DNA from: an uncultured Candidatus Saccharibacteria bacterium
GTDB taxonomy: Bacteria; Patescibacteriota; UBA1384; DATEAH01; CAYPSR01
Direction: 5' to 3'
Length of the DNA stretch: 42,456 bases
NCBI GenBank assembly: GCA_964413595.1
Contig: CAYPSR010000002.1
Location: forward strand, 1 to 42,456
Shown here in pieces: positions 969 to 9,993 of the stretch. The position numbers and the translations under genes were made by a program. The notes below the pieces were generated by a model. The model did not search any database and had not been told where the DNA came from. It was given only the letters and a program-made list of their open reading frames with translations. Numbering within the stretch: the first letter of the stretch is position 1; each line of letters opens with the position of its first letter.

Positions 969-1005
969 CTATAGGGCATTTCGTGAGAAAGTGTCTAAGG
1001 AGTTT
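969..1005 (+). repeat. GNRA-hairpin + CTAAGGA element, copy 1
   Basis: ctataGGGCATTTC-GTGA-GAAAGTGTCTAAGGAgttt. Near-identical to 1273-1309. Its AAGGAG lies 9 nt upstream of the ATG at 1012. Confidence 0.7.
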
Positions 1006-1011
1006 AAAAAA

Positions 1012-1278
1012 ATGAAGATAAACATAATCTCAAAAAAATTAAAAGCAGTTTCAAGTTTAAAAAGATTATTAATTATTAGAAAATTAAAGTCTTCAAAAAG
1101 ATCCACTAATTCAGAGATTGCAAGTTATATTAATCTTTCTTACAAAAGTACAAATCGGCATTTGCAAGTTTTAATAAATTCTGAAATTATAAATAATGAA
1201 ACCGTAAATGGATATGTAGTTTTTTTTCTAAATAAAAATCAAGAAGGTTTTATCAAAAATGTTATTAAGAACCTATAG
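1012..1278 (+). CDS. Small winged-helix (ArsR-like) transcriptional regulator
   Basis: LKRLLIIRKLKSSKRSTNSEIASYINLSYKSTNRHLQVLINSEII resembles an ArsR/SmtB HTH. ATG at 1012 with AAGGAG upstream is preferred over the track's TTG at 937, which reads through the repeat. Confidence 0.45.
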   Translation: MKINIISKKLKAVSSLKRLLIIRKLKSSKRSTNSEIASYINLSYKSTNRHLQVLINSEIINNETVNGYVVFFLNKNQEGFIKNVIKNL

Positions 1279-1309
1279 GGCATTTCGTGAGAAAGTGCTT
1301 AAGGAATTT
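1273..1309 (+). repeat. GNRA-hairpin + TTAAGGA element, copy 2
   Basis: ctataGGGCATTTC-GTGA-GAAAGTGCTTAAGGAattt. It overlaps the TAG stop of the wHTH gene, so the gene is bracketed by direct copies. Confidence 0.7.
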
Positions 1310-1325
1310 GAGTTAAATATATTTT

Positions 1326-1847
1326 ATGAAATTATTAGTTGTGGCTTATCCTATTAGATTATATATTGATAATGTTTTTTATCATCTTTACCATGCCGAT
1401 GCTAGTGTTCAGCCAATTATTGACGCATATAATGGTTTAATTGACGGGGAATATAGACAAAAAGGATATAAAATTTGCTTTCTTTTGCCGAAAGCTCACA
1501 GGGTTGATTCAAAAGAAAGAGGCATGGATTCGCGCATTAAGGTTTTTGATCAAGACATTATTCTTTATGGGAATAGAACAATGACGCAAAAAGACATTGA
1601 TAATGGAGCAGAAGATCATCTAGATTTTCAAATGATGCCAGAATATTTTAATCAACCAAATAATGAAATAGTTGTTTGCGGTTTTCATCGGTTAAATTGT
1701 GTTCAGAGAATATTTGAAGAATTTATGGAAACAGGAAGTGTTGTAGCGATCGATAAGTCCTTGACTGATTATCACTTTGAATATTCAGTAGCTAGAGAGT
1801 GGGAAAAGTTATTACAAGAAAGCAATGTCCGGGAAGGGGCAATATAA
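1326..1847 (+). CDS. Hypothetical protein (possible cysteine-hydrolase/isochorismatase-like fold, weak)
   Basis: 173-aa ORF abutting tgt (TAAATG junction). The only hint to function is IVVCGFHRLNCVQRIFEEF. Confidence 0.5.
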   Translation: MKLLVVAYPIRLYIDNVFYHLYHADASVQPIIDAYNGLIDGEYRQKGYKICFLLPKAHRVDSKERGMDSRIKVFDQDIILYGNRTMTQKDIDNGAEDHLDFQMMPEYFNQPNNEIVVCGFHRLNCVQRIFEEFMETGSVVAIDKSLTDYHFEYSVAREWEKLLQESNVREGAI

Positions 1848-2993
1848 ATGAAATTTAAGTTTATTAAACAAATTGGTAAAAAGCGATATGGTCAGATGAT
1901 GTGGCAAGGTTTTAAAGTTCAAACTCCTGCATTTATGCCGGTGGCAACAGTTGGTGCGGTAAAAGGAATTTCTGTTGATGAAATAAAAGACATTGGTTAT
2001 AAATTAATTCTTTCAAATACATATCACTTGCATCTTCGTCCAGGAGAAAGGTTGATAAAAAAACAGGGTGGGATACAAAAATATATGAATTGGGATGGAA
2101 AAATACTTACTGACAGCGGCGGTTATCAGGTTTTTTCATTGATGGGTACGAAAAGCAAGAATGGTAAATCACTTGTTAAAATCACAAATGATGGAGTCGA
2201 ATTTAAATCGCACATTGATGGCTCTAGACATTTTTTTACTCCAGAGCGTGTTATTAAAATTCAATTAGATTTAGGATCTGATATTATTATGCCGCTAGAT
2301 TATTGCCCATCAGGTAAAGCAGATAAAAATGAAATTAAAAAATCAGTTAATATTACGATAGATTGGGCAAAGAGATCGATTAAATATTTTAAAGAAAAAA
2401 CTAAAAATCTAAAAAACCGTCCAGTTCTTTTTGGAATTATTCAGGGCGGATTGAATTTGGATTTAAGAAAATACTGTTTGAAAGAAATCACAAAATTAGA
2501 TTTTGACGGATTTGCAATCGGCGGGTTGGCAGTTGATTTAGAAACCAGAAACATGTGGGATGTGGTTGATTTTTGCACGTCACTTTTACCAAAAGACAAA
2601 CCACGCTATTTAATGGGGGTTGGAACACCAGATGATATTATTCGTGCAATTTCATTGGGAATAGATATGTTTGATTGTGTAATTCCGACAAGACTTGCTC
2701 GTCATGGAATAGCTTTTGTTCGACAACCCCATGGACAGTTTCGTGAGAAACTGCCTAAGGACAAGGTCAAGATTGGTTCAAAAAATAAAAATAAATATCA
2801 ACAAATAGATTTTAGAAAATCAAAATTAAAAAACGACAAAAACCCAATTGACAAAAATTGTAAATGCTATGCTTGCAAAAACAAATACTCTCGTGCTTAC
2901 ATTCATCACCTAATTAAAGAAAAAGAAATGCTTGGTCTTCGTCTCTTGACACTTCATAATTTACAAGCTTATTGGGATTTAACAAGAAATTAA
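1848..2993 (+). CDS. tgt: Queuine tRNA-ribosyltransferase
   Basis: [36 protein letters not shown], and zinc motif [18 protein letters not shown]. Carries about 24 extra residues before the zinc motif. Confidence 0.93.
2733..2761 (+). repeat. GNRA-hairpin + CCTAAGGA element, copy 3, in-frame inside tgt
   Basis: GGACAGTTTC-GTGA-GAAACTGCCTAAGGA, translated as [10 protein letters not shown]. The stem carries compensatory changes relative to the other copies. Confidence 0.65.
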
Positions 2994-3002
2994 AACAAAC
3001 CA

Positions 3003-3068
3003 TCTTGTTACACCTCGTAGGTGCGTTTTTTAGCCTCAGGATTTGTCTTGTTACACCTCGTAGGTGCG
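3003..3068 (+). repeat. Two 23-bp direct repeats, each with a small hairpin
   Basis: tcttgttaCACCTcgtAGGTGcg at 3003-3025 and 3046-3068. The first copy is followed by TTTTTT, so it may act as the tgt terminator. Confidence 0.6.
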
Positions 3069-3096
3069 AGTAGATGGTTAGACTTTATTTTTAATC

Positions 3097-3126
3097 TTGA
3101 CACCTTATAATCTTCGGGTCTATTAT
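3097..3126 (+). promoter_or_regulatory. Sigma70-like promoter for the R-M operon
   Basis: TTGACA-N18-TATTAT within the recurring tcTTGACAcc context. Confidence 0.45.
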
Positions 3127-3262
3127 GAGATAACAAATAAATAATTTCTTGATCTCTCAAAATTTATAAACTTATTGGGATTTGATGAAGAAATAAAGGA
3201 TTTGATTTTTGGGACTAAAAGAAATAAGATTGAATTAATAACTCGAAAATAAAATAATTACT

Positions 3263-9012: not shown

Positions 9013-9104
9013 TCAGCAAATAACAAGTAAAAGATAATAGGTTGAAAACATAGTATCATTTCTGATAAATATAGAAAAGTTCGAAATATTCAATCTTATA
9101 TATA

Positions 9105-9131
9105 AAAATCCCGCTTAAAACGGGATTTTTG
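9105..9131 (+). terminator. Intrinsic terminator after rpsJ
   Basis: AAAATCCCG-cttaaaa-CGGGATTTT followed by T. Confidence 0.65.
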
Positions 9132-9193
9132 AATAAAACCTATGTTTTTTTAATGCTACATAAGTTTCGAAACATATTAGACAAAATAAGATT

Positions 9194-9406
9194 GTCATTC
9201 TGAGTGCAAGCGAAGTCCCGACATAAAGTCGGGATCCCGTATCCTCGCTATGCGAGGCATCGGGAAATCCCATTTTTACTAACAGGCAGGTTTCGCGTAT
9301 GCGAGTCAATCCTGAAACAAGTTCAGGGATCCCTTTCTACGCTCGGGATGACAAAATGTCAGCTTAGAGATCCCTCGTCATTTCATTTTTCAAGATGACG
9401 AGAGCC
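9194..9406. repeat. Cluster of at least 5 short GC-rich hairpin repeats
   Basis: Hairpins seen: GTCATTCTGAG.., TCCCGAC/GTCGGGA, CCTCGC/GCGAGG, CCTGAA/TTCAGG, ATCCC..GGGATGAC, CTCGTCAT/ATGACGAG. Confidence 0.8.
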
Positions 9407-9495
9407 TTAACTCTTAAAAGTCTAATATGTATGGGACGGATACAGGGTCTTGCAAAATAGATTTTAAAATCATATTATAGAATTAAGGAGATAAT

Positions 9496-9618
9496 ATGGC
9501 AAAAACAAAAGCAGGCAAAAAAATTGTTGAAGTACATTCTCACAAGAGAAAATGTTCAACATGTAAAACAAAAAAATCAACTAAAGTTCGCGAGTACAGA
9601 AGATCAACCCCAAATTAG
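9496..9618 (+). CDS. 40-aa highly basic protein
   Basis: MAKTKAGKKIVEVHSHKRKCSTCKTKKSTKVREYRRSTPN. Strong Shine-Dalgarno (TAAGGAGataat-ATG). Not in the ORF track because it is too short. Confidence 0.5.
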   Translation: MAKTKAGKKIVEVHSHKRKCSTCKTKKSTKVREYRRSTPN

Positions 9619-9672
9619 GCATGGTTATAAGTTTTGATAAGAAATTAAAAAACGAAATTTAAACAAATAAAA

Positions 9673-9861
9673 ATGGAAAAAAAAGAAAGAAAAATTGCAA
9701 CAGTTTTAGGGCTATCAATATTGTTCGCAGTATTGATATTTGCTGTTTATTTTGTCATGAAAGGTTTTAAGGCCTATGCTGACACTCTTATCGATTATGA
9801 AAGTTCGGTTATTTCTGAATCAAACGCTGACACTTCAACTTGTGCAACATGTAATCAATAA
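9673..9861 (+). CDS. Small single-pass membrane protein
   Basis: Hydrophobic segment ATVLGLSILFAVLIFAVYFV. Followed by a terminator. Confidence 0.5.
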   Translation: MEKKERKIATVLGLSILFAVLIFAVYFVMKGFKAYADTLIDYESSVISESNADTSTCATCNQ

Positions 9862-9884
9862 GAATTGACAAAATAAAATTTTTC

Positions 9885-9911
9885 AAAGCTTAGTACTTGC
9901 TAAGCTTTTTT
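9885..9911 (+). terminator. Intrinsic terminator
   Basis: AAAGCTTAG-tacttg-CTAAGCTTT followed by a T-run. Confidence 0.75.
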
Positions 9912-9966
9912 ATTTTATTGAAAAAATTAACAAAGGTATTATGTTAAATCATTTAATCTAACTGGT

Positions 9967-9993
9967 GGCACTTTCTCACGAAAGTGCCTAAGG
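9967..9993 (+). repeat. Hairpin + CCTAAGG element, copy 4 (loop inverted)
   Basis: GGCACTTTC-TCAC-GAAAGTGCCTAAGG. Same arms as the other copies; the loop is the reverse complement of GTGA. Confidence 0.65.

Follow-up and report, generated by a model that had tools for sequence, protein, structure and literature searches.

Intragenic auxiliary operators are known from the classical bacterial operons, with lac O2 located in lacZ and gal OI in galE. The Rickettsia palindromic elements are known for their in-frame insertion into protein-coding genes. The MITEs, or miniature inverted-repeat transposable elements, of prokaryotes form another group of palindromic elements and have been reviewed (PMC10969869). 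Proteins of the ArsR superfamily bind as homodimers to pseudo-palindromic operators, and the residues of the recognition helix set the specificity of binding (bioRxiv 10.64898/2026.05.15.721447). The locus described here has features in common with each of these systems. It lies in a stretch of 42,456 nucleotides from an uncultured Candidatus Saccharibacteria bacterium (GenBank assembly GCA_964413595.1, contig CAYPSR010000002.1, positions 1 to 42,456), referred to below as the window. Within 9 kb of this stretch there are four palindromic elements of approximately 36 bp (c1 to c4). Two of these bracket a small gene for a winged helix-turn-helix (wHTH) protein of the ArsR/SmtB type and a third is translated in frame within tgt, the gene for tRNA-guanine transglycosylase. 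With moderate confidence, and from sequence comparison, the four elements are read here as double-stranded DNA operators for the adjacent 88-amino acid regulator, acting on DNA as opposed to RNA.

The pattern TTTC-N4-GAAA-N-TG-YY-TAAGG occurs in four same-strand copies in the window, against 0.03 expected by chance from shuffled sequences. A search with the pattern TTTCNNNNGAAANTGYCTAAGG, allowing up to two mismatches, returns positions 979-1000, 1283-1304, 2739-2760 and 9972-9993, all on the plus strand; the four copies described in an earlier note on this DNA are thus all present where it placed them. A fifth match is the minus-strand reading of the third copy, and none of 100 shuffles reached five matches. 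In what follows, the sites are centred on their middle four bases, span about 36 bp each and are given without a strand.

The site c1 (967-1002, central 4 bp 983-986) lies upstream of the wHTH gene. It is made up of a left outer half-site CTATAG, an inner part GGGCA-TTTC / GTGA / GAAAGTGTC and a right outer half-site CTAAGG. The site c2 (1271-1306, central 4 bp 1287-1290) carries the stop codon of the wHTH gene (TAG, 1276-1278) within its left outer half-site, as the earlier note had reported, and lies 20 nt ahead of the open reading frame (ORF) 1326. Both c1 and c2 fall within a 51-nt direct repeat (955-1005 and 1259-1309) of 82% identity, and both share a 1-nt deletion in the 5′ arm. The site c3 (2727-2762, central 4 bp 2743-2746) lies in frame within tgt and reads CCCCATGGAC-AGTTTC / GTGA / GAAACTG-CCTAAGG. 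The intergenic site c4 (9960-9995, central 4 bp 9976-9979) is preceded by a terminator-like hairpin (9885-9908) and followed by ORF 10126, and promoter-like sites occur to its left and right. It consists of the perfect 9-bp dyad GGCACTTTC / TCAC / GAAAGTGCC plus CTAAGG and is the only window copy with such a dyad. Arms and tail are unchanged in c4 and the centre is turned, to the reverse complement of GTGA, in agreement with the inverted tetraloop proposed before. The paired stem changes that had also been proposed are two-sided between c3 and c4 (CAG..CTG / CAC..GTG). In c1 and c2 the 5′ arm is one base short (GGGCA-TTTC vs. GAAAGTGYC) and the incomplete complementarity leaves a bulged G, and the 5′ arm of c3 carries one additional A.

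The comparison with homologous loci provides the principal evidence. Eight independent genomes were inspected, the window included, with homologues picked by similarity or contig size and not by their flanks. A dyad with the core TC-N4-GAA lies just before the wHTH gene in all eight. A second copy is located at or over the stop codon in six of the seven genomes in which this position can be assessed (the window, L058, L062, L063, L066 and L067), and the spacing from upstream to downstream site is 289-352 bp. In L058, where the wHTH protein is 53% identical and the upstream neighbour is the same as in the window, the upstream site is AACTTTTC GCAC GAAAGGGCC, just before the ATG, and the downstream site is TAG GACCTTTC GCAC GAAAAGGC, at the stop. 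The corresponding pair is GGAACTATTC GCGC GAATAGTTCC and GAAGTATTC GCGC GAATAGTTC in L062 (wHTH 41%), and CTCTAATTC GCGC GAATGGTAGAATAG and CTCTAATTC GCGC GAATAGACGAATAG in L063-65 (34%). The Liptonbacteria locus L066 (40%) has a perfect palindrome upstream, with 17-bp arms around GTGA; its downstream site has the same arms around TCAC, with the stop codon TAA inside the left arm. The Colwellbacteria loci L067/68 (32%) carry CTCTAATTC GCGC GAATAGGCGAATAG upstream and CTC TAA TTC GCGC GAATGGGCGAATAG downstream.

Two genomes complete the set. L060 (wHTH 41%) has the upstream site TCTACTAATC GTGA GAATAGTAGA, and downstream of its gene there is an ordinary terminator-like hairpin and no second copy. 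In L061 (44%) the upstream site is inverted with respect to the gene, the other strand reading GACCTTTTC GCAC GAAAAG CCTTAAGG; its downstream position is not assessable, as the contig ends in adapter sequence. The genes adjoining the module vary from genome to genome. In the sequences of the canonical relatives, the upstream site can be read as lying over, or right beside, the -35 to -10 region.

An ungapped alignment of 16 sites, four from the window and 12 from elsewhere, describes the anatomy of the element. Positions T15, C16, G21, A22 and A23 are invariant and form the core TC-N4-GAA. The inner half-sites, ..CAnTTTC and GAAAnTG.., form an inverted pair with 4 bp between them. These are flanked by outer half-sites, the left one being CTATAG or CCATGG and the right one CTAAGG; in other lineages the right one is GAATAG, GAATGG or CAATGG at a conserved position. 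Over 16 column pairs the dyad pairing is 75.4%; shuffles lie at 63.0 ± 2.2%, with 0/500 as high, and slid controls at 39-52%. The column pair 13/24 is A:T in nine sites, T:A in seven and unpaired in none.

A symmetrised weight matrix was built from the 12 non-window sites only (background mean -51.7, standard deviation 13 bits). Across the whole 42-kb window this matrix ranks c1 first (16.0 bits), c2 second (13.7 bits) and c4 third (10.7 bits). Since sites from other genomes place these three at the top, the window elements are homologous to the family site. The score of c3 is lower (1.9 bits, rank 6). The two unlike outer half-sites of c3 (CCCATGGAC... and ...CCTAAGG) agree at nearly every base with those of the inverted L061 site, and c3 is therefore a complete site and not a degenerate remnant. 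At rank 4 (6.2 bits) stands a dyad at 30938-30973, AAAAATAGTAATATTC GTAC GAATTAGTATATTGGT, with the canonical core ATTC-N4-GAAT. It is intergenic, upstream of ORF 31026, and belongs to a 65-nt inverted repeat with 16446-16510; it may represent one more weak site or a chance occurrence.

The bracketed gene (1012-1278, plus strand) encodes a minimal ArsR/SmtB-type winged helix of 88 amino acids, the putative binding partner of the sites. The protein matches Pfam HTH_5 (ArsR family) with 23.4 bits at a cut-off of 22. Against solved structures, the family profile finds HlyU (3jth) with 3.3e-17 and also CzrA, NolR, SmtB and PagR. A profile of 32 members recovers 1335 proteins at E<=1e-5, and the best matches with names given by their source come from lineages of the Patescibacteria group and are often annotated as ArsR/SmtB regulators. 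The genome from which the window derives is low in GC (approximately 31%), and its Tgt is most similar to Tgt of metagenome-assembled genomes of Patescibacteria and Berkelbacteria. A HMMER search yielded 89 remote homologues of 85-93 amino acids that align from residue 1, which places the start at ATG 1012. The public gene calls begin at TTG 937 (113 amino acids) or ATG 955 (107 amino acids), translate c1 and are probably wrong. An N-terminal extension through c1 (RAFREKVSKE, in the same frame as the Tgt copy) was considered and rejected on the length and alignment of the same homologues.

The residues that define the sensor subclasses, namely the metal sites alpha-3N/alpha-5 and the Cys pairs, are absent from the wHTH protein. 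As it contains no Cys and a single His, which is located in the recognition helix, there is no obvious sensor site. This puts the protein outside the sensor subclasses and still inside the fold family. The recognition helix appears to vary together with the site: the motif SY[KR]ST[NDA] is paired with GAAA half-sites in three genomes (the window, L058 and L061), and S[FI]K[SAG]TS with GAAT half-sites in the other five.

A Shine–Dalgarno sequence, AAGGAG (998-1003, plus strand), is located 8 nt before ATG 1012 and overlaps the right outer half-site of c1. The upstream copy had been described as supplying this sequence; AAGGAG does follow the c1 core, and the tail itself is an outer half-site as opposed to a Shine–Dalgarno module. 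Directly to the left of c1, a putative extended -10 element (956-964, plus strand; TG-A-TAGAAT, TGATAGAAT) was identified by eye, and the L058 orthologue keeps a matching ATGATAcAAT (ATGATACAAT) upstream of its gene at 227-236. A consensus scan did not flag the element at 956-964, and promoter-like sites in that region are not above chance.

It is proposed that a homodimer, or possibly two dimers per unit of four half-sites, would bind each site. As c1 precedes the Shine–Dalgarno sequence and follows the putative -10, its occupancy would repress the regulator’s own gene and result in negative autoregulation. The site c2, over the stop codon and 20 nt before the operon of ORF 1326 and tgt, would gate read-through or an internal promoter, and c4 would act in the promoter region of the ORF 10126 cluster. 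The site c3 would be a complete site that entered a permissive loop of Tgt, where it may serve as an auxiliary operator, a roadblock or a neutral passenger. The candidate regulated genes are ORF 1326 (1326-1847, plus strand, 173 amino acids), the stop codon of which overlaps the tgt start (TAAATG), and ORF 10126 (10126-10599, plus strand, 157 amino acids), the first gene downstream of c4. The former has no match in Pfam, NCBIfam or PADLOC, and its single-sequence AlphaFold2 model is too poor for use (mean predicted local distance difference test score, pLDDT, 47).

Among the roles that had been suggested for the element, the comparative data (8/8 upstream, 6/7 downstream, and the matrix) favour an operator for the wHTH protein. 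The features of the ArsR/SmtB class that can be read here are the fold, a dyad site at the 5′ side of the gene, with its promoter position deduced from sequence, and the co-occurrence of site and protein. We infer the binding of protein to site, the positions of the promoters, the direction of regulation and any DNA looping. Several observations weigh against an operator. The link between protein and site is one of association, and the covariation of the dyad cannot distinguish a homodimer site from a hairpin. The correlation of helix and half-site is confounded by phylogeny, as the eight points are not independent. Copies in the same genome are alike beyond the dyad, as in the 51-nt repeat of the window with its shared 1-nt deletion, which implies duplication or gene conversion and not selection for binding alone. 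The orphan c4 is a more perfect dyad than c1 and c2, the sites that are conserved in position. Both c3 and the dinB copy of L067, described below, sit in coding insertions that a pure operator model does not need. Finally, the want of an obvious sensor site in a protein with no Cys and one His, and promoter-like matches that do not exceed chance in AT-rich DNA, likewise count against the operator reading.

The copy in tgt shows how such a site can reside in a coding sequence. The gene (1848-2993, plus strand; Pfam TGT, 2.3e-137) contains a lineage-specific segment at 2724-2807 (plus strand) of 28 residues (293-320), where solved Tgt has four. In the alignment to the solved chain, query residue 292 corresponds to chain residue 281 and 321 to 286, which gives a 24-amino acid insertion before the zinc motif. 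The site c3 is translated in the Tgt frame and contributes approximately 12 of the extra residues; its position within an extra segment, as the earlier note had it, is upheld. In the proposed comparison of Tgt orthologues the insertion is lineage-specific, and the loop length is variable. The segment that spans the loop measures 50-126 residues in 33 orthologues from the candidate phyla radiation (CPR), with content unrelated between lineages. As both length and content are hypervariable, the loop is permissive, and by these alignments it is an insertion hot spot across CPR. In the closest Tgt orthologue (L059, 1176-1245) the loop holds a (TCACAAA)n microsatellite; other orthologues contain translated hairpin repeats, such as CHSREGGNPE.

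A second lineage provides a parallel. In the Colwellbacteria loci L067/L068, the downstream dinB gene contains, in frame, a third complete copy of the site of that lineage. This copy lies within an insertion of approximately 33 amino acids (L067, 10690-10800) relative to solved DinB, beside a different palindromic repeat. The presence of an in-frame copy in a downstream gene in two lineages implies that the site can be copied and inserted. The intragenic copies may be auxiliary or roadblock operators, or neutral passengers.

Searches for further copies were made at several scales. No fifth copy was found by fuzzy search (up to six errors) in the window and the 7.4 kb past its right end; for the available part of the genome the count is provisionally four copies, all within 9 kb, with none in the remaining ~41 kb. 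Viral contigs (IMG/VR) scanned with TTTCNNNNGAAANTGYYTAAGG gave only chance matches without the 5′ arm, and the same was the case for GTDB genomes (one per species) scanned with TTTCKYRMGAAANTGYYTAAGG. The JGI metagenomes, also scanned with TTTCKYRMGAAANTGYYTAAGG, gave chance matches with the exception of three short contigs of the same organism, which carry these same four loci. The fragmentary JGI assemblies contain about half of the window’s four loci per sample and no others. Because these fragments returned only the known loci, it would appear that the remaining genome has few or no additional copies of the window variant. Strain variation is uninformative here, since the remaining contigs of this organism match the window with 99.6% identity or more. 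A viral scan with the canonical motif TCTCTAATTCKYRMGAATNRG returned two matches, and the one inspected lacks a wHTH gene. A 9-4-9 dyad at 39683-39704 (GGGAATTTC CAGA GAAATTACC) in coding sequence was judged a chance occurrence, having a different centre and no outer half-sites. The earlier note listed a mobile module among the possible roles; a dispersed mobile hairpin family is not seen, further copies of this variant being absent from the window flank and from the viral, GTDB and JGI scans, the contigs of the same organism aside.

These searches bear on the view that the element is a self-propagating palindrome, akin to a MITE or a Rickettsia palindromic element, that spreads alone or with the wHTH gene as selfish DNA, with the wHTH protein as a passenger or helper. 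Such a palindrome would account for the 24-residue Tgt insertion that holds c3, for the analogous dinB insertion in L067/L068, and for the other repeats gathered by the same Tgt loop in other lineages. It would also fit the greater likeness of copies in the same genome than of orthologous positions between genomes, and the variable neighbours of the module. Yet there are only four copies in ~50 kb, to which the JGI contigs of the same organism add no locus. When the flanks were read they showed no consistent or convincing target-site duplication, and a GACAA repeat around c3 would give a unit of 38 nt, out of frame. No transposase or recombinase is present in the scanned ORFs or in the module gene lists of L063, L066 and L067. 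Both flanking positions are kept in relatives with wHTH proteins of 31-53% identity, with the upstream synteny retained in L058, and fixed positions in such diverged relatives imply long-term retention as opposed to turnover. A self-propagating palindrome is accordingly considered unlikely. A further proposal is a spreading operator, in which the cognate site is duplicated and inserted near its gene, also in frame in permissive loops of downstream enzymes, for which tgt and the Colwellbacteria dinB are two independent cases, or in which the wHTH gene and its sites form a new kind of minimal selfish module; this is likewise regarded as unlikely. If it holds, insertions would wire neighbouring genes, often those for DNA or tRNA modification and repair, into the control of the regulator, or build intragenic auxiliary operators.

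In a role on RNA, the hairpin, once transcribed, would present a GNRA loop and a tail CUAAGG(AG), would function as a 5′ stabiliser or in processing or translational control, and could be a target of the wHTH protein. In its favour, each of the four window copies is on the coding strand, c1 would begin the wHTH mRNA at its extreme 5′ end, ahead of the Shine–Dalgarno sequence, and the 3′ arm in L058 contains a Shine–Dalgarno-like AAAGGG. The predicted RNA folds of c1, c3 and c4 are more stable than those of shuffles (z=-3.5, -2.4 and -2.9, respectively), whereas that of c2 is no better (z=-0.7); c1 and c2 are bulged and c3 lies inside a coding sequence. Across the family the central four nucleotides are GTGA, TCAC, GCAC, GTGC or GCGC, often not GNRA, and their orientation is free at conserved positions, with GTGA upstream and TCAC downstream in L066, the same flip as in c4. 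Small inversions are a known fate of perfect inverted repeats, which fits this flip. The L061 site, together with its outer half-site CCTTAAGG, is inverted with respect to its gene, and the outer half-sites of L063 and L067 are conserved in sequence (GAATnGnnGAATAG) despite poor complementarity. Rfam gave no match at gathering score in the window and nothing relevant at E<=10 around the window or the homologous sites. A preQ1 riboswitch, an idea that arose from the CUAAGG tail near tgt and its resemblance to the 3′ end of the preQ1-I aptamer, likewise has no Rfam match at E<=10, and was rejected since a 9-bp stem and a 4-nt loop spare no loop bases for a pseudoknot. The variable and flipped centres, the inverted L061 site and the Rfam result do not support the GNRA-loop framing of the earlier note, and the compensatory stem change that it described as preserving the helix is equally predicted for a dyad read by a homodimer. 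The data on orientation, centre and outer half-sites favour a double-stranded DNA site, and an RNA element is held to be very unlikely. The remaining proposal treats the sites as recombination sites or cassette boundaries, with the wHTH gene as an excisable or invertible cassette of an attC-like kind. The flanking copies form a direct repeat in the window, with GTGA in each, and an inverted one in L066 (GTGA vs. TCAC), and the bulged arm bases recall the extrahelical bases of attC. Nevertheless, the attC R″/R′ cores (RYYYAAC...GTTRRRY) are absent, the sites measure 36 bp against 55-140 bp, and each locus has one bracketed gene and no array. No integrase or recombinase is present near the module among the ORFs scanned in the window, or in L063, L066 and L067. 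This explanation is deemed highly improbable. A profile search of the six-frame translation near c4, made for a second wHTH gene or a relic of one, returned none.

A number of further observations concern the genes around the sites. The ORF upstream of the module (79-909) is weakly similar to MutY/HhH glycosylases, and the module neighbours in L063, L066 and L067 are DinB, an exonuclease or Pol III tau; a link to repair or replication is a lead only. In the window, rpsJ/S10 (8674-9012) and rplC/L3 (11933-12568), normally direct neighbours, are parted by 2.9 kb (9013-11932). This gap contains a GC-rich group (9190-9410) of short, unrelated hairpins, a 40-amino acid basic ORF, a 62-amino acid membrane ORF and c4. 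Four ORFs within it (10126-11719) have no Pfam or NCBIfam match. The genes after c2 and c4 (1326-1847; 10126-10905; 10905-11719) have motifs like ..VVCG..CV... and include two split pairs. On these motifs they may be remote paralogues; paralogy of ORF 1326 with ORF 10126/10645 and with ORF 10905/11420 was not established, the BLASTP E-values being just 0.05-0.15. Directly after tgt there is a restriction-modification cluster (3263-6807) with two N6/N4 DNA methyltransferases, a BsaWI-like endonuclease and a 222-amino acid ORF. The 3′ end of tgt and the adjoining spacer (2944-3197) contain three 51-nt direct repeats that start with TCTTGA (TCTTGACAC in two of them) and have a promoter-like look owing to their -10-like hexamers. 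Between convergent genes, at 33768-33821, there is a perfect palindrome of 26 bp around a 2-nt centre (AATAATAAAGGATACACATACGCGCG / CGCGCGTATGTGTATCCTTTATTATT).

Transcriptional regulation in Patescibacteria (CPR) is almost uncharacterised, and these organisms cannot be grown alone. A widespread regulator family of 1335 members with a recognisable predicted cognate site at both gene flanks provides a testable protein-DNA pair, and the site allows small regulons in Patescibacteria to be predicted from sequence. The in-frame copies in Tgt and DinB illustrate how regulatory palindromes can become protein sequence in reduced genomes, which bears on the odd insertions found in CPR proteins. The public calls of the wHTH gene that translate the upstream site (107 and 113 amino acids) are corrected as a by-product.

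Compared with the Rickettsia palindromic elements and MITEs, the resemblance lies in a palindrome that sits in frame in a conserved enzyme, in a surface loop, with the reading frame intact. The present element differs in its length of 36 bp against 100-150 bp and in its four local copies against tens to hundreds of dispersed ones, and also in its link to a single regulator gene, beside which its positions are conserved. The small loop inversions of chloroplast spacers are similar in that a perfect inverted repeat keeps its arms and has its centre reversed, as in c4 and the L066 pair; they offer a mutational mechanism for the flip and not a function. The likeness to lac O2 and gal OI is that of a site in a downstream coding region, a few hundred to ~1500 bp from the promoter-proximal sites. 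Here the site came by insertion and lengthens the protein by the residues that it encodes, and looping or oligomerisation is speculative.

The closest relatives are the ArsR/SmtB autorepressors SmtB, CzrA, HlyU, SdpR and NolR. These share with the present protein a small winged helix of the same superfamily, a dyad site beside or over the regulator’s own promoter, and helix residues that track the operator. The present system departs from them in the absence of metal or thiol sensor residues and in a second conserved site at or over the stop codon, by which the gene is bracketed. It also has four half-sites over ~36 bp and extra copies within coding sequence, and its binding is putative. The bracketing arrangement, the stop codon within the downstream site and the in-frame intragenic copies are, to our knowledge, undescribed in the literature searched. 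The underlying system is of a known kind, that of an ArsR-type regulator with a palindromic operator.

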